Positions 1,428 through 46,253 of a DNA stretch of 64,000 nucleotides are shown here, piece after piece. Every line of letters starts with the position of its first letter. Position 1 is the stretch's first letter. A model generated the notes under the pieces. That model saw only the letters and a list, made by a program, of their open reading frames with translations. It was not told the DNA's origin and did no database searches. The DNA comes from a phage, in the NCBI GenBank assembly GCA_014686905.1, contig GCA_014686905.1_4093.1; one strand, written 5' to 3'. The position numbers and the translations under genes are program-made.

Positions 1428-1517
<90 letters not shown>

Positions 1518-8107: not shown

Positions 8108-8692
8108 ATGAATGTTATTGATAATAGATTAGTACTGAAAAATGGAAAAATGACTGTTAAGTTATATAAAGATGAAGCTGATTCTTTTATGGCAAAAGCG
8201 ATTGAAAAATCAGAACGATATAAACTTTTGGCTCCAGCCAGTAAATCGCCATATGGTTTTAATCATGCACATAGTCATTTTGTTGGTATGGTATGTGAGC
8301 ACGCATCTTTAGTACTTTTTAATGAAATTGAAAACAATACTGGTATTAAACTTAATATCGATCCAGCATTCCAAAATGAAGCACGTGACGGTGAATGTGA
8401 TATTAAGGTAAACAACCTTCGTATTGAAGTAAAAGGTATCAAGTATAAATCATGGACTGACTTTGGACCATGTGTTAGTACTCGACAGTTAAAAAATATC
8501 CAGAAAAAAGCTGACGTAATACTATGGGTATTGTATAATGAGAAAAAACAAGAGTTCACGTTTGAGGGATTCAACTATGTAAAAGATATTAGTTCTATCC
8601 CAGTTATCCTCACTGGTGTACCAGGGCGACCAATGATTGAAAATCACCCAGTACTCGGTATTATGAAACCACTACAGGAGTTACCATTGTGA
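8108..8692 (+). CDS. hypothetical protein (194 aa)
   Basis: ORF; TTGACT-N17-TATCAT promoter-like upstream. Confidence 0.6.
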   Translation: MNVIDNRLVLKNGKMTVKLYKDEADSFMAKAIEKSERYKLLAPASKSPYGFNHAHSHFVGMVCEHASLVLFNEIENNTGIKLNIDPAFQNEARDGECDIKVNNLRIEVKGIKYKSWTDFGPCVSTRQLKNIQKKADVILWVLYNEKKQEFTFEGFNYVKDISSIPVILTGVPGRPMIENHPVLGIMKPLQELPL

Positions 8693-8916
8693 TTACTGCA
8701 ACTGTATATCAAGATATCAATGAAGAATTTCATTCTAAAATTGCGTTCTTATCATTTCCTGTACTCCCAGCAGTTGGGTCAACGTTGAATCTTACCATTT
8801 GTGGTTTTGAGAAATATTATAAAGTACTAGATATTGAGTACTGTGCTGATGTATATTCATGTAATAGTGAAATTGCAATTCCAGTATCAATCGATATTAT
8901 TGTAAAAGAGGTTTGA
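8689..8916 (+). CDS. hypothetical protein (75 aa)
   Basis: ORF, overlapping coupling with neighbours. Confidence 0.5.
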   Translation: MITATVYQDINEEFHSKIAFLSFPVLPAVGSTLNLTICGFEKYYKVLDIEYCADVYSCNSEIAIPVSIDIIVKEV

Positions 8917-9374
8917 TTATGTTTAAGAATTTTATGGTTATCGTAGCAGTACTGTTTGGTACATCATGTTTCATTTCCCCAGTACACGCAGAAGAACAAC
9001 GTCAAACTATTAAAACTATTGGGACTGGTAAAACTCCCCCTAAACGTACTGCTGAAGAATACATGCCTGAAATGCGTGAACGTTATCGTCAGACATACAG
9101 GGAAAAACATGCTAATGATAAACCCATCAAGAAGCATAAATGGGAAGTTGTTAAATCTCCTTCATTTTGTGCTGGATATGCTAAAGTAAAGATTGAGCAG
9201 CACAAAAAACAGTACTATAAAGATATGTATTACTTCTATGACTCCAGAATTTCTGACACAGATATGATGGCAGGGAAGGTTGATAAAGAAGAATTTCTAC
9301 AAGGCTATGATATGATGGACGATGACAAAATCATGGAATGCGTTGAAGTGTATGAAAAATACAGAGGCTTCTGA
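8913..9374 (+). CDS. secreted hypothetical protein (153 aa)
   Basis: ORF; N-terminal signal peptide ending ...PVHA/EE. Confidence 0.6.
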   Translation: MIMFKNFMVIVAVLFGTSCFISPVHAEEQRQTIKTIGTGKTPPKRTAEEYMPEMRERYRQTYREKHANDKPIKKHKWEVVKSPSFCAGYAKVKIEQHKKQYYKDMYYFYDSRISDTDMMAGKVDKEEFLQGYDMMDDDKIMECVEVYEKYRGF

Positions 9375-9850
9375 TGTTAACAATAGTGTTGTTGGTAAGT
9401 CCATTTGTGTATTTTGTGCTGTATAATATTTTTAGTAATGCTAATCATTTTAAATATGCACAAACAATTGCAAAACATGAAGGATTTTGGAATTTTTTCC
9501 CAGCGTTACTATGCTCATATCTATACCATGAACGCTATTTCATTTTTCCTGAATATAAAAATTATGGTTATGATTCTAAAGTAAATGGTATAATTGAGTA
9601 CTGTATAAGAAATTATCTTAATAATAATGATAACGTCCAAGTAAGAATAGGAAATGGTAATATACCAAGAATAGTTTTCATACCTGATATACAAGACCCA
9701 ATATACTTATATCCATATGATTATAGTATTAGTGTAGGTTGTTCGATACATGGTAGTAAATCTATGTACGATTACTTTATCTTACCACCAACACAAATTA
9801 GATTAATAGAAAAATATTTGAGGGAAAAGTTTGACAACAAAGATTCTTAG
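9374..9850 (+). CDS. hypothetical protein (158 aa), N-terminal TM
   Basis: ORF from track. Confidence 0.55.
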   Translation: MLTIVLLVSPFVYFVLYNIFSNANHFKYAQTIAKHEGFWNFFPALLCSYLYHERYFIFPEYKNYGYDSKVNGIIEYCIRNYLNNNDNVQVRIGNGNIPRIVFIPDIQDPIYLYPYDYSISVGCSIHGSKSMYDYFILPPTQIRLIEKYLREKFDNKDS

Positions 9851-9891
9851 TATTATAATTAACACACCAAGTAACCCAAGGGGGATGGAAA

Positions 9892-10350
9892 ATGGATGTA
9901 TTAGCTACAAATTTCAAACGTAATGTTGAAGAGCGTGAAGGTTATTTTAGTATTAGTGAAGTTGTCGATGACAATTTTAAACAATACATTTTTAATAGTG
10001 CAATTAAATTAAAATGCACAAAGGATTCACCTGATCGTAGCTTTACTAAATGGATTGCATATTGGGAGGATTCACCAGTTGCAATTGAAATGACTGTGAT
10101 TACAACAGTACTTGAAACTGGTTACATCAAAGCCATTATAGTTGATAAGAAAGTCCGTACTCTTGATGAAATTAATCCATATCCAGCCCGAAATTCTAAA
10201 GTTTTTGGTGTGTTGGTTGATGGTAAATTTATGATAGAAAAAGATGCAAAGGAATATGTAATTAATAAACTTCAAACTACATCAGAAAAAAAGGAAGTAG
10301 TGGACCAAAACTCTGTTGATGCAATCAAAAAAGCATGGGGACTAAAGTAA
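9892..10350 (+). CDS. hypothetical protein (152 aa)
   Basis: ORF, SD GGGGGA upstream. Confidence 0.6.
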   Translation: MDVLATNFKRNVEEREGYFSISEVVDDNFKQYIFNSAIKLKCTKDSPDRSFTKWIAYWEDSPVAIEMTVITTVLETGYIKAIIVDKKVRTLDEINPYPARNSKVFGVLVDGKFMIEKDAKEYVINKLQTTSEKKEVVDQNSVDAIKKAWGLK

Positions 10351-10351
10351 T

Positions 10352-10774
10352 ATGTTCACACTAAGTAATGCAAAATATCTTTTTCTTATTAGTATTATTG
10401 GTTGGGTTATGGCTCCAGTGCTAAATGCACTGGGGTTTTCCGATGAACATAAACTTGTAAATGTTTCAGGTTTAATTCAGGGTATTTCATGGTATACATT
10501 AATTACATTTTCAGTGTGCATCAATACATTTGCCCGTGATTATCGACGTTTGTTATATCTGAAAGTATTTGGAACTACACGATATAGTTTTGTTTACACT
10601 TTCATTTTAGTACCGTGTATGTTATATGCATTTGTATTTGATTACTATACATATCTATGGGTATGTGGAACTATGTTTGTTATGTTGGAATACATCAGAA
10701 CTGTTCAAAACTCATATGCCGATGAGTTTCATGATCTAGAAGTTAAACGAAAATTAACGGAGCTAAACAAATGA
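10352..10774 (+). CDS. hypothetical membrane protein (140 aa)
   Basis: ORF with several hydrophobic segments. Confidence 0.55.
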   Translation: MFTLSNAKYLFLISIIGWVMAPVLNALGFSDEHKLVNVSGLIQGISWYTLITFSVCINTFARDYRRLLYLKVFGTTRYSFVYTFILVPCMLYAFVFDYYTYLWVCGTMFVMLEYIRTVQNSYADEFHDLEVKRKLTELNK

Positions 10775-11196
10775 GAGGCTATAATAAGATTTGTATTTTT
10801 GTATTTTTAGTTTGTGCATTCAATTCGTTTGGTTACTACTGTACAGAAAATAATATTTCATATGGTTTAAATCCTTTGTGGTTTACAATTTCTAATGTAG
10901 CACAAATTGGTATTGCTCTTATGTCTGCACTTATGTTCTGTTCAATTGTCACAATGGATACTGATCATGAAAGGCTTGTATTTCTCCGTGATACTGGAGA
11001 CGAACCTTACAGTAGATTAATTGTGTTGTATCCATTTATTGTTATTTTAGGTACTAACATCCAACTTGGGTCATTATCTAATAGTGTTACATCAGCAGCT
11101 ATTGCTATATTTGCATTCACATTTTTTATGGTACACAAATCAGTACTTAATTGGTATATCACAAAAATGGCAGAAGAAGGTACTAAAAATACTTGA
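10771..11196 (+). CDS. hypothetical membrane protein (141 aa)
   Basis: ORF with several hydrophobic segments. Confidence 0.55.
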   Translation: MRGYNKICIFVFLVCAFNSFGYYCTENNISYGLNPLWFTISNVAQIGIALMSALMFCSIVTMDTDHERLVFLRDTGDEPYSRLIVLYPFIVILGTNIQLGSLSNSVTSAAIAIFAFTFFMVHKSVLNWYITKMAEEGTKNT

Positions 11197-11255
11197 CATA
11201 ATTTAGTATGTTATATATAATTATTTTGTTAAAAACAAATTAGAGTAAGGAACTT

Positions 11256-11507
11256 ATGAACATCGATAAGGTCAAAGAACTTAGTGCTGCACTAATTAAG
11301 AATGAAGAAGTTTGTGAAGAACTTCGCAGTACTATCAAAGTTGAGTACGCACGACTCCAAGGTATGCTTCAAGAATCAGAATGGGTAGTAACTAAATCTA
11401 TCGAAGCAATCTATAAGGATATTGAATCCCTTTTCAACAAGAAAAGTAAGATTGAATCTGATTCATATAACAAACGTAAAGAGTTATCTACTGCACTTGG
11501 TATCTAA
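11256..11507 (+). CDS. hypothetical protein (83 aa)
   Basis: ORF, SD AAGGA upstream. Confidence 0.5.
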   Translation: MNIDKVKELSAALIKNEEVCEELRSTIKVEYARLQGMLQESEWVVTKSIEAIYKDIESLFNKKSKIESDSYNKRKELSTALGI

Positions 11508-11581
11508 AAGTATTTTACATAACAAATAATATGGAGTACAATGTGCTCCTAATTTAATTATCAGCTAAAAAGGAAAACATT

Positions 11582-11842
11582 ATGAAATCTATTCTCGTTG
11601 CAGTTAACCTGGTTGCTTCCCCATCTTTCAACTTCAAACAAGTTGTTGCTGATAATCTGAAGAAGATCTGTCCAAACGCTGAATTGACTTTCTGTGTATT
11701 TGATTCAGAAAAAGTAACTAAAGTTGATCTAAACTATCTTTTGAACGAAGTACAAAGCGTTTCTGGTGAAAGTAACTTAAAAGTTCTTCATGAGATTGCA
11801 GAAGATTATGATGACACTCTAGTAATTTCGGAGAAATTCTAA
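11582..11842 (+). CDS. hypothetical protein (86 aa)
   Basis: ORF, SD AGGAAA upstream. Confidence 0.5.
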   Translation: MKSILVAVNLVASPSFNFKQVVADNLKKICPNAELTFCVFDSEKVTKVDLNYLLNEVQSVSGESNLKVLHEIAEDYDDTLVISEKF

Positions 11843-11847
11843 ATCAA

Positions 11848-12267
11848 ATGATTACATTCATTCAGTACTTAATCATTAAATTTTTTGGCTATTATACGAT
11901 TGAGGGCAAAGCTACGCTTGCACATAAAATCTTTGTAGCATTATGTACGGGTGATTATGACGTATTGAATAAGTACTGTAAATCTAAAGAATGTATTGAT
12001 ATAATGGCACTTCGTATCTATGAGTGCCGATCCAATAGATACAATTTTTACCAGTACAGATTTGATAAAGAAGAATTTGATAGCATCAAAATGCTAAAGA
12101 ATTTATGTAACAATAAAAAGAATATGCATATATCAGAATTTGTTGCTTTGTATTTTTATTTAAAAAGTTCATTGTATATGAACACGATGCAAAGATTCGA
12201 TACTAGAATTAATGTATTCACCGATAAAGAATTTTATATATACGATAAATTCTTAGATAAGGTTTAA
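11848..12267 (+). CDS. hypothetical protein (139 aa)
   Basis: ORF from track. Confidence 0.5.
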   Translation: MITFIQYLIIKFFGYYTIEGKATLAHKIFVALCTGDYDVLNKYCKSKECIDIMALRIYECRSNRYNFYQYRFDKEEFDSIKMLKNLCNNKKNMHISEFVALYFYLKSSLYMNTMQRFDTRINVFTDKEFYIYDKFLDKV

Positions 12268-12268
12268 T

Positions 12269-12766
12269 ATGACAACTGTTTATATTGATAAACGATTAAA
12301 TTTATTGATTACCGATTCTAGAGTTACGTCAACTATACCACGAAACTTATTTGGTTTTTTCCCACTAAGACCAAAATATCAATATGGAGTTGTTAATCAA
12401 AAAACTTTATATGTACATGACCGTTTATTCAGTGCTAGTGGGTCAGTAAGTGAAATTGATAAAGTACTGGATTGGTTAATTAATAAAGTACCAGTTATAC
12501 CTGACAGAAAGTTAAGTTGCCATTGTGTGCTTCTTTCTAAAGATTATGTTATTCATATGATTTTAACTAAAGGAAAGTTTATTAAAAAACTTGAATATCT
12601 ACATGAAGACTACACTTTCTTTATGGGAAGTGGTGGAGAATACATGCTAGATGCTGCTATTCATGAAGAACATACAACTTTATATGATAAAGTGTTTAGT
12701 ACTTTCATGGATGTGCATAACCATGATTGCTTCACAGATGATAATATTAATGTATATCGATTTTGA
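12269..12766 (+). CDS. hypothetical protein (165 aa)
   Basis: ORF from track. Confidence 0.55.
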   Translation: MTTVYIDKRLNLLITDSRVTSTIPRNLFGFFPLRPKYQYGVVNQKTLYVHDRLFSASGSVSEIDKVLDWLINKVPVIPDRKLSCHCVLLSKDYVIHMILTKGKFIKKLEYLHEDYTFFMGSGGEYMLDAAIHEEHTTLYDKVFSTFMDVHNHDCFTDDNINVYRF

Positions 12767-12787
12767 TTTCGTCATTAGGAGATGTAA

Positions 12788-13753
12788 GTGAAAAAGCTTG
12801 ATTTAAATACAATTGCCGAAGAAGTTCTGGATGAATGTTTTGCTAATGAAGAAGTCAACACACTAGAAGCCTTAGATTTCGTTGAAGATAAAGATGAAAA
12901 TGAAGGTAAAGTACAAAGCAGTTTCAAATATAATATTACACTTAAGCGACCACCAAATGTTTCCAATGAAGATCTAATTCGTGATATTCAAGCTGGTATC
13001 AATATAAAGAAAAACACTGAACTGTTAGTTCGTTACAATTATGGACTTATTATTGATGTAGCAAGTAAATGTACTTGTTATATCCCATTTGAAGATAAGA
13101 TTTCATATGGTGTTGAGGGGTTCATGAGAGCACTAAAAACCTTTGATCTTAATAAGAATGTTAAGTTCATTACCTATGCTTCTTCTAGTATTTACATGAC
13201 AGTTTATAACGAAAGTTCTGACGCTAACTATATGGTACACTTCCCACGTTATATGAGTGTTCATAAGATCAAAGTAAAAAGATTCTGCCAGGAATATATG
13301 CGTAAACATGGTGTTCGCCCAACTCCTGAAATAATCTCAGAGGGTACTGGGATTGAGATTCAGCATGTTAATAACTGTTTGTTATTTCAAAGCGAATACA
13401 CTTCTCTGGATGCACCATTAGACGGTGTTACCGATGGTACACTAGGTGACATTATTCATTCACCTGCTTCTGATTTTAACCTCAATGTTGATAGTATTCG
13501 TGCACCTTTACGTTATGCTATCAATGAACTGACTAACGAATTGAGTACTAAAGAACGTGAGATTATCCAGCGTGTTCATGGTCTAGGTGAATATGAACCT
13601 GAAACGCTTCGTGAGATTGCTGATAATGGTTTTGTTGATGATAATGGAAAATATGTTAAATCCCGTTCATCAATACACCGAAAGTACAGTGAAGCTATGC
13701 AAAAGCTTAAGAAGTTAGTACTTGCAAAAGGGTACGAATACGAAGATTTCTAA
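12788..13753 (+). CDS. sigma-70 family RNA polymerase sigma factor (321 aa, GTG start)
   Basis: Region 2/3-like FITYASSSIYMTV...HFPRYMSVHKIKVKRFCQEYMRKHGVRPTPEII, region 4-like LSTKEREIIQRVHGLGEYEPETLREIA...SRSSIHRKYSEAMQKLKK; SD AGGAG 6 nt upstream. Confidence 0.8.
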   Translation: MKKLDLNTIAEEVLDECFANEEVNTLEALDFVEDKDENEGKVQSSFKYNITLKRPPNVSNEDLIRDIQAGINIKKNTELLVRYNYGLIIDVASKCTCYIPFEDKISYGVEGFMRALKTFDLNKNVKFITYASSSIYMTVYNESSDANYMVHFPRYMSVHKIKVKRFCQEYMRKHGVRPTPEIISEGTGIEIQHVNNCLLFQSEYTSLDAPLDGVTDGTLGDIIHSPASDFNLNVDSIRAPLRYAINELTNELSTKEREIIQRVHGLGEYEPETLREIADNGFVDDNGKYVKSRSSIHRKYSEAMQKLKKLVLAKGYEYEDF

Positions 13754-13761
13754 AGAACAAG

Positions 13762-13787
13762 GGTTGGCTTATGCCAACCTTTTTTTA
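13762..13787 (+). terminator. rho-independent terminator
   Basis: Hairpin GGTTGGC-TTAT-GCCAACC followed by T7. Confidence 0.65.
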
Positions 13788-13789
13788 TG

Positions 13790-14404
13790 GGATGAAGTAA
13801 AAGTTTGTGATATAATTATCTTGTACAATTCTGTTGGCATGATATTCATGTACCTGATCCACTCGAAAACGTAGAGGGCAGTTGAGCAGTCCGACAGTGC
13901 GAACAGCAAAAGAAACCCGTTAGATGTGGGCATAGTTTGAACCCCTCACGGCAATGCGGCTGTATAAAGAACCACGTTAGGATAGCTGGTGGTTCCTTGA
14001 TAGACATATAAGGATAACACCTTACGAATTATCTAAGGGAGAGTTATCGAATTTTGTACAGGAAAGTTGCGTCCAAAATTTGAGTACTCACATTAAGTAT
14101 TTGATTGCATAGATACTTAATGAAGATACACTATGTTTAAAAGTGTAGACCGTCATATGAAACTGAAGTAGAGAGAAACAGGATGACCCGCTTTCGCACT
14201 CGTTATGAGTAATCTTCAATGCAATAGCTCTGATACCATCAGCGTCAAATTTCCCTCCTTGTGGGGGGGAAGAAAAATCCCTTCCTCAAATCCCGTCAAT
14301 ATTAAAAGTCCTTGACAGTTATTAATCATTCGCGTAGAATACGTAGTATTAGAAGCGAACAGACATCTCGAAGAGATGGATGATTAACCATTAAGGAATA
14401 TCCA
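13790..14404. other. ORF-free, GC-richer structured region (candidate ncRNA or regulatory region)
   Basis: No ORF of 60 aa or more on either strand; several perfect hairpins (e.g. CATTAAGTAT...ATACTTAATG, GAACCAC...GTGGTTC). Confidence 0.25.
14313..14340 (+). promoter_or_regulatory. sigma70-like promoter TTGACA-N16-TAGAAT
   Basis: Consensus -35 and near-consensus -10, ~65 nt upstream of ATG 14405. Confidence 0.4.
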
Positions 14405-14614
14405 ATGAATTCAGTAATCTTTTTAGTAGTAGCTCTTTCCATGCAAAGCGGTGTACAAATCACTCCAATGAATTCCATGAATCAATGTATTTCTGTTCGT
14501 GATAGTACCTACGAACAGGTCAATAAAAATATCTGGATGTCTATTAACAAAGAACAGATGTGGTGTTATAACAGTAATACAAAAGTTAAACTGTTTGTTG
14601 GTGAGAAAGAATAA
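14405..14614 (+). CDS. hypothetical small protein (69 aa), signal-like N-terminus
   Basis: ORF, SD AAGGAA upstream. Confidence 0.4.
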   Translation: MNSVIFLVVALSMQSGVQITPMNSMNQCISVRDSTYEQVNKNIWMSINKEQMWCYNSNTKVKLFVGEKE

Positions 14615-14691
14615 TAGTTGACATATAAGAAGTACTAGAGTATACTTTCTATATTGAGTTCTAAAATAAAACATTAATTAAGAGGTTTATC

Positions 14692-14874
14692 ATGCAAATT
14701 ATCATTCTTATTGTTGGTATTATGCTGGGTGTGTATGGTCATAGTTGGATGCAGGAGAAGTTTCCTAATACACGTCCTGACTATTGCAGTTCTAATGTAT
14801 TCCAGAATGGTGAGAAACCAAAGGAAAGCATTGGTAAAAAGCTGGATAAAGTACTTGATGTGATCAATGAATAA
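14692..14874 (+). CDS. hypothetical small membrane protein (60 aa)
   Basis: ORF, SD AGAGG upstream. Confidence 0.4.
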   Translation: MQIIILIVGIMLGVYGHSWMQEKFPNTRPDYCSSNVFQNGEKPKESIGKKLDKVLDVINE

Positions 14875-15085
14875 GGGCCATAAAATGTTTAAACCGAATT
14901 CCAATGTTGGAAAGAAAGTTCAATTACTTGAGGATGTATCCACTCTGAGTGGCATTTTCCCAAGAGGTCACATCATGACTATTATTGCCGAAACATCCCG
15001 TGGGTGGGATTTGGAAGATGCTGATGGTAATCGCATCCTTGAGGCTGGATTCTATGGTCATCGTGAATATAAAATCATTGATTAA
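14867..15085 (+). CDS. hypothetical protein (72 aa)
   Basis: ORF overlapping upstream stop. Confidence 0.45.
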   Translation: MNKGHKMFKPNSNVGKKVQLLEDVSTLSGIFPRGHIMTIIAETSRGWDLEDADGNRILEAGFYGHREYKIID

Positions 15086-15181
15086 GGATACAACATGACT
15101 TTAGAGATTGTCTTTGGTATTGTTAGCTTAGTCGTCTGTGTGGGTTGGTTTGGGTATCTGATGATTTTTGGTGATTAATAC

Positions 15182-15209
15182 TTGACATAAGATATCAGTA
15201 CTGTATAAT
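15182..15209 (+). promoter_or_regulatory. sigma70-like promoter TTGACA-N16-TATAAT with CAGTACTG in spacer
   Basis: TTGACA 15182-15187, TGTATAAT 15202-15209, followed by conserved GTTTATATCAAA. Confidence 0.55.
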
Positions 15210-15239
15210 GTTTATATCAAACGAAATCCACTTTAACAA

Positions 15240-15533
15240 ATGATAGGAAATATTATGTCTTTTTCTAAAGAAGAACGTGACCTTATTAAAAAAGCAATCT
15301 GGTTTTATGCTAATGAAGGGAAGTGCGATGAAGAAAAAGCACGTGAACTGTGTAATATCTTTGAGAAGAAACAAGATCTAAAAGTGTATCGTATCCGTGA
15401 TTTGGATGAAGGGGATCGTATTGTCCTAGCTGAAACAAAAGAAGAAGCAGAACAAATCTTCACTGATAAAAACGAAAATCCACATTGGATGGAAGAAGTC
15501 TGTGATGTTAAAAAAGGTACTTATATCGATTGA
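15240..15533 (+). CDS. hypothetical protein (97 aa)
   Basis: ORF downstream of promoter 15182. Confidence 0.55.
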   Translation: MIGNIMSFSKEERDLIKKAIWFYANEGKCDEEKARELCNIFEKKQDLKVYRIRDLDEGDRIVLAETKEEAEQIFTDKNENPHWMEEVCDVKKGTYID

Positions 15534-21076: not shown

Positions 21077-21268
21077 ATGTTGATTTATCAAGGTGATAAT
21101 ATTCGTGTTATGCAGCATCCCTACTTACAAATCTTTGATGTGCAGCAGTATATGGAAGGTGATGACCCAAGAACCTATGGTCGTAAGTATGATTACTTCA
21201 CTGTAAAGCAGTGTAACAATATTAACGAAGTACGACAATTAGTTCAAGAACTTCAAAACAAAGGTTGA
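21077..21268 (+). CDS. hypothetical protein (63 aa)
   Basis: Start MLIYQGDN with SD AAGGA; track ORF starts 21023. Confidence 0.45.
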   Translation: MLIYQGDNIRVMQHPYLQIFDVQQYMEGDDPRTYGRKYDYFTVKQCNNINEVRQLVQELQNKG

Positions 21269-21294
21269 CTTCGGTCAGCCTTTTTTGTTATAAT
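21263..21294 (+). terminator. terminator-promoter cassette (UUCG hairpin whose 5' arm is the -35 box)
   Basis: GGTTGACTTCGGTCAGCC + T6, then TATAAT 18 nt after TTGACT. Confidence 0.65.
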
Positions 21295-23997: not shown

Positions 23998-24112
23998 TTT
24001 AACTTTGGGACAACCATTCTTATTATGATATAATGTTTTATGTCATTCGATATAAATGACAACGGAACTATAAATATTATAGTAAAATTTATCTCTTATA
24101 GGAGTTATAAAA

Positions 24113-31877: not shown

Positions 31878-31910
31878 GGGTTGACTTCGGTCAGCCCTTT
31901 TTGCTATAAT
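31878..31910 (+). terminator. terminator-promoter cassette (consensus copy)
   Basis: GGGTTGACTTCGGTCAGCCC + T5, TATAAT 18 nt after TTGACT, then ATTATTTCATCAA box. Confidence 0.7.
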
Positions 31911-33159: not shown

Positions 33160-33192
33160 GGGTTGACTTCGGTCAGCCCTTTTTGCTATAAT
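33160..33192 (+). terminator. terminator-promoter cassette
   Basis: GGGTTGACTTCGGTCAGCCC + T5 + TATAAT + ATTATTTCATCAA. Confidence 0.7.
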
Positions 33193-34574: not shown

Positions 34575-34606
34575 GGTTGACTTCGGTCAGCCCTTTTTGC
34601 TATAAT
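34575..34606 (+). terminator. terminator-promoter cassette
   Basis: GGGTTGACTTCGGTCAGCCC + T5 + TATAAT + ATTATTTCATCAA. Confidence 0.7.
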
Positions 34607-42522: not shown

Positions 42523-42603
42523 AATTCCTCCTTTATTCATTATACTATATTTAATACAAATAAGAAAGCCAGCACTCTGTACTGGCTTTTTGATATACAT
42601 ACT

Positions 42604-46194: not shown

Positions 46195-46253
46195 CCTCCT
46201 TATTCATTATACTATATTTAATACAAATAAGAAAGCCAGTATCAAGTACTGGC
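46195..46253 (-). promoter_or_regulatory. representative module: upstream terminator hairpin + -35-less promoter + SD
   Basis: On - strand: GCCAGTACTTGATACTGGC hairpin, T-rich, TTAAATATAGTATAATGAATAAGGAGG, then ATG; repeated before most paralogs. Confidence 0.5.

Follow-up and report, generated by a model that had tools for sequence, protein, structure and literature searches.

A phage-encoded sigma-70-family factor of 121Q-type jumbo coliphages and a candidate class of middle promoters

The Rak2-like jumbo phages have no RNA polymerase of their own, and the accepted reading is that the sigma factor which they encode redirects the polymerase of the host (PMC7824862, PMC11895373). For phage CBB, the same three promoter classes as are discussed below were described, among them a "divergent RpoD-like" class, TGAAACG plus TATA, with one copy before a gp55-like gene; this divergent class was not assigned there to the sigma factor (PMC5259590). 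The sigma genes of GAP32 and CBB (GAP32_490 and CBB_513) lie in an early region behind host-type promoters (PMC5259590), as does the orthologous gene considered here, whose product is 35% identical to theirs. This gene occupies positions 12788..13753 (plus strand) of a 64,000-nucleotide phage contig (GCA_014686905.1_4093.1 of assembly GCA_014686905.1), the whole of which is called the window in what follows. The window belongs to a jumbo coliphage of the 121Q/PBECO4 type (genus Asteriusvirus) and is 97-99.5% identical to many records. The sigma gene itself is already known, since more than 30 public genomes annotate it and it is cited as a hallmark of the phage group. In 121Q (gp167), PBECO4, slurp01, phAPEC6, G17, Sharanji and others, a protein 99% identical to that of the window carries the annotation RNA polymerase sigma factor, and the 121Q gp167, PBECO4, slurp01 and Sharanji sigma "RpoD" entries represent the same gene, with 99% amino acid identity, the same neighbors and the same length. 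RaK2, K64-1, GAP32, CBB, 7t3 and relatives from Erwinia, Yersinia and Serratia have annotated orthologues that are 35-45% identical.

Two better known transcription programs invite comparison. Phage T4 also runs three tiers with similar middle genes, and its late tier is homologous (a gp55-like factor and a TAAATA core, served in T4 by gp55/gp33/gp45), but T4 encodes no full sigma factor; instead, MotA/AsiA remodels the host sigma70, with a MotA box at -30 as against the GGGACA at -35 described below. In Bacillus phage SPO1 (PMC13401047), the early phage sigma gp28 likewise replaces the host primary sigma for middle genes that include the late factor, and a late tier under gp33/gp34 follows. 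What sets gp28 apart is that it is smaller, very divergent and possessed of its own -10 element, whereas the -10 element in the window phage stays sigma70-like.

Our reading, to which we give a probability of about 55%, is that the window sigma would be expressed early, would direct the host enzyme to middle promoters with the -35 hexamer GGGACA, and would be followed by a late tier under a gp55-like factor. Four things were observed directly and carry this model: membership of the protein in the sigma-70 family, the context of its gene, three promoter motif classes with their statistics, and co-variation of the -35 hexamer with the helix expected to read it.

The sigma factor and its promoter-reading residues

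The open reading frame (ORF) opens with GTG, 6 nucleotides (nt) downstream of an AGGAG ribosome-binding site (RBS) at 12777..12781 (plus strand), and since the N-terminus MKKLDLN is kept across all relatives in the alignment, the start codon is right. The original prediction, made from the letters of this stretch alone, called the 321-residue product a full-length sigma-70-family factor, and profile searches, PDB sequence matches, alignment, a predicted model and Foldseek all bear out the family assignment. Among Pfam profiles, Sigma70_r3 (PF04539) matches residues 162-226 at 37.8 bits, above its cut-off of 25.3. The profiles for regions 2 and 4, by which the prediction was to be checked, fall just short: Sigma70_r2 (PF04542) scores 23.0 bits against a cut-off of 24.0, and Sigma70_r4 (PF04545) 23.8 against 24.1, the latter matching over model positions 4-28 only, its first half, because of an insertion in region 4.2. 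Both regions are supported all the same by the superfamily model TIGR02937 (44.7 bits, above the cut-off of 42.9), by NCBIfam RpoD_Cterm (E 6e-25, residues 79-283), and by the alignment, in which the equivalents of N383, D403, F419, F427, T429 and Y430 of sigma70 are invariant in the phage sigma family and the match to RpoD and RpoS runs on through the recognition helix of the predicted region 4 helix-turn-helix. PHROG 351, "RNA polymerase sigma factor," is the sole PHROG matched (E 6e-60), and all significant PDB sequence matches of the ORF are sigma factors.

AlphaFold, given 13 family sequences, models each domain with confidence (pLDDT 70-89), namely sigma2 at residues ~50-145, sigma3 at ~158-200 and sigma4 at ~240-315, the last with helices at 254-264, 274-280 and 293-313 (pLDDT 82-89); the first 49 residues, which are acidic, are modeled with low confidence. 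The top 50 Foldseek matches in the PDB are all sigma chains (sigmaS, sigmaA and sigma70; E 4e-11 to 1e-8), the best being sigmaS and sigmaA with probability 1.0, and the TM scores are low because the domains are differently arranged in the model of a free sigma. The resulting layout is an acidic and probably disordered stretch (residues 1-49), a region 1.2-like segment with sigma2 (~50-145), sigma3 (~158-226) and sigma4 (~240-315). No region 1.1 is recognizable, so that "full-length" holds for regions 2, 3 and 4 in a protein the size of RpoS and not for the N-terminal region of primary sigmas. Judged by profiles, alignment and model together, the product is a sigma-70-family factor of RpoS-like size. 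The "RpoD" label on Asteriusvirus records is over-specific: the RpoD_Cterm score is 88 bits against an equivalog cut-off of 354, and that for rpoS_proteo is 70 against 379. Since the scores lie this far below the equivalog cut-offs and the promoter-reading residues are changed, the protein is not an RpoD orthologue. A gp55-type factor is likewise not indicated, the only PHROG match being 351 and none being to a gp55 family.

To place the reading residues, the phage sigma family was aligned to Escherichia coli RpoD and RpoS and the residue numbering checked. Two strings quoted in the original prediction fall within sigma regions as it had claimed: FITYASSS (residues 127-134) belongs to region 2.3/2.4 (FITYASSSIYMTVYN, residues 127-141, at 13166..13210, plus strand), and PRYMSVHKIK (residues 153-162) to region 3.0. 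In region 2.3/2.4, F427, T429 and Y430 of sigma70 are retained, as is the F419 equivalent. W433/W434 are replaced by S133/S134, with Trp there in no family member, and the -12 readers of primary sigmas, Q437 and T440, are replaced by M137 and Y140; in region 3.0, H455 is Tyr and E458 is Val. The absence of the Trp wedge, taken with the borderline Pfam scores for regions 2 and 4, could be read to mean that the protein is a decoy, which occupies core polymerase or titrates a host factor and has no role in directing initiation. We regard this as very improbable. Group 3 sigmas also lack the Trp pair and yet are active. From 121Q to CBB, at 35% overall identity, conservation extends to all three domains, to the helix-turn-helix and to the equivalents of F419, F427, T429 and Y430; this is the pattern expected of a working sigma, which weakens the decoy explanation.

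Region 4.2 carries a family-specific insertion of 9-11 residues (residues 278-291, ADNGFVDDNGKYVK, at 13619..13660, plus strand, placed by alignment and model), which lies between the two helices of the helix-turn-helix, is kept in all lineages and is modeled as a beta-hairpin. The recognition helix that follows reads SRSSIHRKY in the alignment (residues 292-300, at 13661..13687, plus strand), against TRERIRQIE in sigma70. Only R584 of the four sigma70 -35 readers R584, E585, R588 and Q589 is kept, as R293; the others are S294, H297 and R298. From such altered residues one would expect a changed -35 specificity, not the loss of a -35 element.

The readers themselves are matched in E. coli sigmaE. 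In the register of DNA contacts, phage R293-S294-S295-I296-H297-R298 corresponds to sigmaE R171-S172-R173-I174-F175-R176, and R293, S294, H297 and R298 match the DNA-contacting residues R171, S172, F175 and R176. In the crystal structure of sigmaE4 with DNA (PDB 2H27), the G opposite C(-31) is read by R171, G(-34) by S172 and G(-35) by R176. F175, a position held by Phe or His among group 4 sigmas, makes contact at position -33, and R584 of sigma70 corresponds to R171 in function (PMC1540707). We made this comparison by hand against the published contacts, the automatic alignment to RpoE sigma4 being mis-registered, and the residue match is one of DNA-contact register, one helical turn off the structural alignment. 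SigmaE and the window sigma share the readers R-S-x-I-(F/H)-R, a G-rich -35 element with a conserved C (GGAACTT for sigmaE; PMC1540707) and a spacer of 16 base pairs (bp). Unlike sigmaE, however, the window protein has sigma3 and a sigma70-type -10 element and is therefore not a two-domain extracytoplasmic function (ECF, group 4) sigma; the sigmaE likeness is limited to the reading residues of region 4.2.

Promoter classes and their co-variation with region 4.2

Promoter classes were derived from enriched words in the upstream regions of ECO103 4-12-1, a close relative whose full 352-kb genome was assembled here and to which the counts in this paragraph refer. Class A, TTGACA-N15-19-TATAAT and often TGTATAAT, has 30 exact sites against 1.9 in shuffles; of its copies listed 5′ of genes, most fall in the small-gene regions that also hold the sigma gene. 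Class B, GGGA(C/A)A-N15-19-TATAAT, has 14 sites against 0.8 in shuffles, with the consensus GGGA(C/A)A-N16-TG(A/C)TATAAT, and all 14 are on the minus strand, like their downstream genes. The hexamer GGGACA alone occurs 65 times, the number expected by chance, and 12 of these copies have an exact TATAAT at a spacer of 16-17. Class B sites precede the SSB gene (twice, with UvsX next), the RNase H/FEN exonuclease gene, a Nudix hydrolase gene together with a glutaredoxin-like gene, and a gp55-like gene followed by gp47/gp46 homologues, and PHROG searches confirm SSB, exonuclease, Nudix hydrolase and "sigma factor for late transcription" among the products. This gp55-like gene (ECO103 133662-134501, outside the window) matches phrog_12791 (2.7e-154) and phrog_234 (8.4e-18), and its product matches cyanophage gp55 by tblastn. 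Class C is ATAAATA, or loosely nTAAATA, with 31 of 52 genome copies in upstream regions, usually 22-49 nt before the start codon, often just after a terminator, and followed by an AT-rich or TATAAT-like stretch. As a motif it is similar to the late promoter of T4. A search with the T4 late motif TATAAATA itself gave only 14 copies genome-wide, the enriched core being (n)TAAATA/ATAAATA. The published classes of CBB line up with these, in that the second has a classic -10 and an altered -35 and stands 5′ of DNA-synthesis and gp55-like genes, as class B does, and the third is ATAAATA. CBB and GAP32 differ from the window in the -35 element (TGAAACG against GGGACA) and in the helix (SKATLSRRY against SRSSIHRKY).

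This last difference was followed across four lineages by comparing the orthologous promoters of the gp55-like, RNase H and SSB genes, and by counting own- and cross-lineage hexamers with TATAAT at a spacer of 16-17 in syntenic blocks of 45-50 kb. All four lineages keep the layout hexamer-N16-TGnTATAAT, and the hexamer itself differs by lineage. The 121Q type has GGGACA (4 own-hexamer sites in the block) with the helix SRSSIHRKY, and SE_PL and 7t3, whose sigma genes are identical, have GGGACA (6 sites) with SRTSLHRCY. SNUABM_47, which is GAP32/CBB-like, has G(G/A)AAC(G/C/A) (8 sites) with SKATLSRRY, and RaK2 has (T)GAAC(A/G) (6 sites), or GAATAA at some orthologous promoters, with VRGTLHYKF. 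Chance would give ~0.04 to 0.4 own-type sites per block, and the cross-lineage counts are 0 with a single exception of 1. Where the residue at the position of sigma70 Q589 is Arg, hexamer position 1 is G, and where it is Tyr (RaK2) or Gln (sigma70), that base is T; every lineage, like sigma70, pairs a basic residue at the position of R584 with C at hexamer position 5. Both pairings match the sigmaE4-DNA contacts R176-G(-35) and R171-G(-31′) (PMC1540707). The 7t3 sigma is 36% identical to that of the window and the RaK2 sigma 46%, yet it is 7t3 that shares GGGACA and the helix pattern R-(S/T)-S-x-H-R, which shared ancestry alone would not predict. This co-variation, suggestive rather than conclusive, supports the reading of class B promoters by the phage sigma.

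A further pairing was noted in region 3.0. The base between TG and TATAAT of class B is G in SNUABM_47, which has Glu at the position of sigma70 V454, and A or C in the lineages with Arg or Lys there; to judge by these alignments, this may be a second co-variation.

Several points weigh against assigning class B to the phage sigma and against the cascade built on it. The class B -10 element is a perfect one of the extended type (TGnTATAAT) and usable by host sigma70 without a -35 element, so that GGGACA could belong to another phage factor. It is not obvious how a sigma that lacks W433/W434, Q437, T440, H455 and E458 would read a sigma70-type -10 and TG. The co-variation comes from four lineages, and for RaK2 and SNUABM_47 the sites counted were in part those that had supplied the pattern; 7t3 breaks the sigmaE rule that pairs Ser or Thr at 172 with G or A at -34; and the gene calls for ECO103 (444 genes) are rough ones made here. 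The literature searched yielded no study of an Asteriusvirus or Rak2-like sigma by transcriptomics, start-site mapping or biochemistry, and for the Rak2-like phages no transcript 5′ ends, timing or biochemistry.

The chief alternative follows from the first two of these points. Host sigma70 may use class B through the extended -10, of which TGnTATAAT is its consensus and whose -12 and TG the phage sigma lacks the sigma70 residues to read, while some other phage protein, an activator or a MotA/AsiA-like pair, binds GGGACA, and the sigma has other or broader targets. T4 is well established to run the same tier logic without a new sigma. AsiA homologues have been noted in some group 2 jumbo phages (PMC7824862). 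Nevertheless we think this explanation unlikely, since GGGACA, at 16-17 bp from the -10, has the spacing of a true -35 element and not that of a MotA box at -30, and the lineage-specific changes in the hexamer track region 4.2 residues in a chemically sensible way.

The window holds a single class B promoter, the target type proposed for the phage sigma, GGGACA-N16-TATAAT with TGA before the -10, at 24007..24034 (plus strand). A late-type ATAAATA stands in tandem with it at 24070-24076 (plus strand), 36 bp away. The pair precedes a homologue of a small gene whose ECO103 copy matches the virion structural family phrog_16530, and the tandem layout at 24007-24076 suggests two-phase expression, as far as motifs can tell.

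The modules of the RCC1-like array

The targets originally put forward for the sigma were not these promoters but the -35-less motif TAAATATAGTATAAT, repeated before the RCC1-like genes. The repeat is real: the window has 11 matches at two or fewer mismatches against 1.6 by chance, and nine of the 11 are on the minus strand between 42539 and 53085, seven exact and two variant. They form nine terminator/15-mer/RBS modules before RCC1-like paralogues (15-mers at 42539, 44993, 46206, 46946, 48209, 49449, 50669, 51849 and 53071, all minus strand; the module at 46195-46253, singled out for in vitro work, is on that strand too). The order in each is a terminator hairpin, the 15-mer, GAATAAAGGAGG and an ATG that opens a protein with MLPF.RM..YGN. 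The 15-mer has a mean pairwise identity of 96%, while the encoded proteins are ~42% identical and the flanks diverge, which argues that the motif is functionally constrained.

As the basis of a genome-wide promoter class, however, the 15-mer had to be rejected: its exact copies in the 352-kb relative are confined to the RCC1-like array, and it thus belongs to one paralogue array instead of marking promoters at large. In the module, which reads tTAAATAtagTATAAT, TAAATA stands 25-26 nt 5′ of the ATG, and a conserved -35 box is lacking. The same layout is found in several clear class C promoters (ATAAATA-cgt-TATAAT, cTAAATAaagTATAAT and ATAAATATAGTATATA), and the last of these shares 13 bases with the module. 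If TATAAT served as the -10, the transcript would start ~10 nt before the ATG, about at the Shine-Dalgarno sequence; with TAAATA as the -10, there would be a leader of ~20 nt. Factors of the gp55 type use promoters without a -35 box, as is established for T4. Since -35-less promoters suit such factors and this phage encodes one, we put the chance that the modules are late-type, gp55-like promoters at even, going by their layout. Their use by host sigma70 through the -10 alone would be a distinctly less likely arrangement.

Less likely still, and in our view improbable, is the arrangement first proposed, in which the RpoD-like window sigma recognizes the TAAATATAGTATAAT modules and drives the RCC1-like array. 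It has in its favor the strong constraint on a 15-mer that contains a perfect TATAAT, and the presence of neither TTGACA nor GGGACA at the -35 position of the modules. But the exact 15-mer is restricted to one array, and the sigma is kept in all Rak2-like genera, including GAP32, which has a single RCC1-like gene (PMC7247149), so that a role in the array only is unlikely. Moreover, the sigma retains a region 4 with a specific reading helix that co-varies by lineage, and the region 4.2 residues go with the GGGACA class; the modules have the late-type layout and a separate gp55-like late sigma is encoded; and TATAAT as the -10 puts the start close to the Shine-Dalgarno sequence. The RCC1-like modules as targets of this sigma are, therefore, not supported.

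The proteins of the array have features of their own. Most of the paralogues behind the 15-mer carry RCC1 repeats; one is a 222-residue protein (a 228-residue ORF from an upstream start) without them. All nine genes open with MLPF(G/A/V/T)RM(V/I/L/M)(K/N)YGN, and the rest of the proteins is only ~42% identical. The shared MLPF...YGN peptide may be a targeting or assembly signal. The phAPEC6 paper, in the passages searched, makes no statement on whether RCC1-like proteins are among the virion proteins found by mass spectrometry.

The sigma transcription unit and the proposed cascade

The unit that contains the sigma gene is headed by a host-type promoter, TTGACA-17-TATAAT with 12 of 12 consensus positions, at 11193..11221 (plus strand). 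Four tightly packed small ORFs (11256-11507, 11582-11842, 11848-12267 and 12269-12766, plus strand) fill 11256..12766 upstream of sigma, and the unit ends in an intrinsic terminator at 13759..13789 (plus strand), a 10-bp stem AAGGGTTGGC/GCCAACCTTT with a T run. In RaK2, GAP32 and CBB, too, the sigma gene has TTGACA host-type promoters upstream (PMC5259590). With a perfect host promoter at the head of its unit, the sigma gene is most likely expressed early, by unmodified host polymerase. Only near-perfect promoter matches were used for such statements, since the DNA is AT-rich and a loose sigma70 scan is for that reason uninformative (in 8500-15500 it gave 31 matches where 37.5 were expected, and across the genome of the relative 401 with at least 10 of 12 positions).

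Several observations concern the surroundings of this unit. The ORF directly 5′ of sigma (12269-12766, plus strand; 165 residues, starting MTTVY) has a weak match to an HslV-family peptidase (phrog_1040, E 1.3e-6), and a hypothetical ORF of 170 residues directly 5′ of the RaK2 sigma gene is likened to it by size alone. Directly 3′ of the sigma terminator lie ~600 nt without an ORF (13790-14404), whose counterpart in 121Q (90232-90955) is also unannotated; as a known RNA this stretch was rejected, with no meaningful Rfam match (gathering threshold or E of 1 or less) and a folding z-score of only -2.16. Near-consensus sigma70 promoters follow at 14312-14340 and 14618-14646. At ~14.7 kb, an HNH endonuclease gene present in 121Q (gp170, 91320-92108) and several relatives is absent from the window and from ECO103, and GAP32 also has an HNH gene directly after sigma; by this comparison, the site downstream of sigma is a hot spot for homing endonucleases. 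Elsewhere in the window, a promoter TTGACTTCGGTCAGCC(C)TTTTTG(C/T)TATAAT is repeated at 21265-21294, 31881-31910, 33163-33192 and 34577-34606 (plus strand), its -35 box lying within a GC-rich hairpin with a T run, which makes it a fused terminator and promoter, and there is a tRNA gene at 1434-1506 (plus strand; Rfam RF00005, 67 bits).

The proposed program would then run as follows. Host sigma70 would transcribe the sigma gene early from its consensus promoter, and the phage sigma would replace sigma70 on the E. coli core RNA polymerase and direct it to the middle class GGGACA-N16-TG(A/C)TATAAT. The altered region 4.2 helix would read the new -35 element, R298 contacting the G at hexamer position 1 and R293 the G that pairs with the C of position 5, as in the ECF factor sigmaE. 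Class B would drive the SSB/UvsX, RNase H/FEN, Nudix/glutaredoxin and gp55-like late-sigma genes, and the gp55-like factor would subsequently serve the -35-less late promoters with the core TAAATA. Here we infer core binding, timing and the assignment of factors to classes. That the phage sigma redirects host RNA polymerase in some form, as originally proposed, is very probably correct. Whether it is, in addition, a mixed-specificity factor, which lacks the Trp wedge, combines a sigma70-type extended -10 with an ECF-like reader of a G-rich -35, has a beta-hairpin within the helix-turn-helix and forms the middle tier of a three-sigma Rak2-like cascade with genus-specific sigma4/-35 pairs (GGGACA, GAAACG and TGAACA), is to us an evenly balanced question.

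The gene itself adds nothing new. What is new is the target assignment and the sigma4/-35 co-variation, both offered as testable predictions, and the corrected assignment has the practical merit of steering tests away from the wrong promoters. If the model is true, a dedicated sigma factor does in these phages what T4 does by remodeling sigma70, and they would be a clear case of coliphages that run a sigma cascade. The Rak2-like lineages would, moreover, constitute natural orthogonal sets of sigma factors and promoters that work on the E. coli core polymerase.

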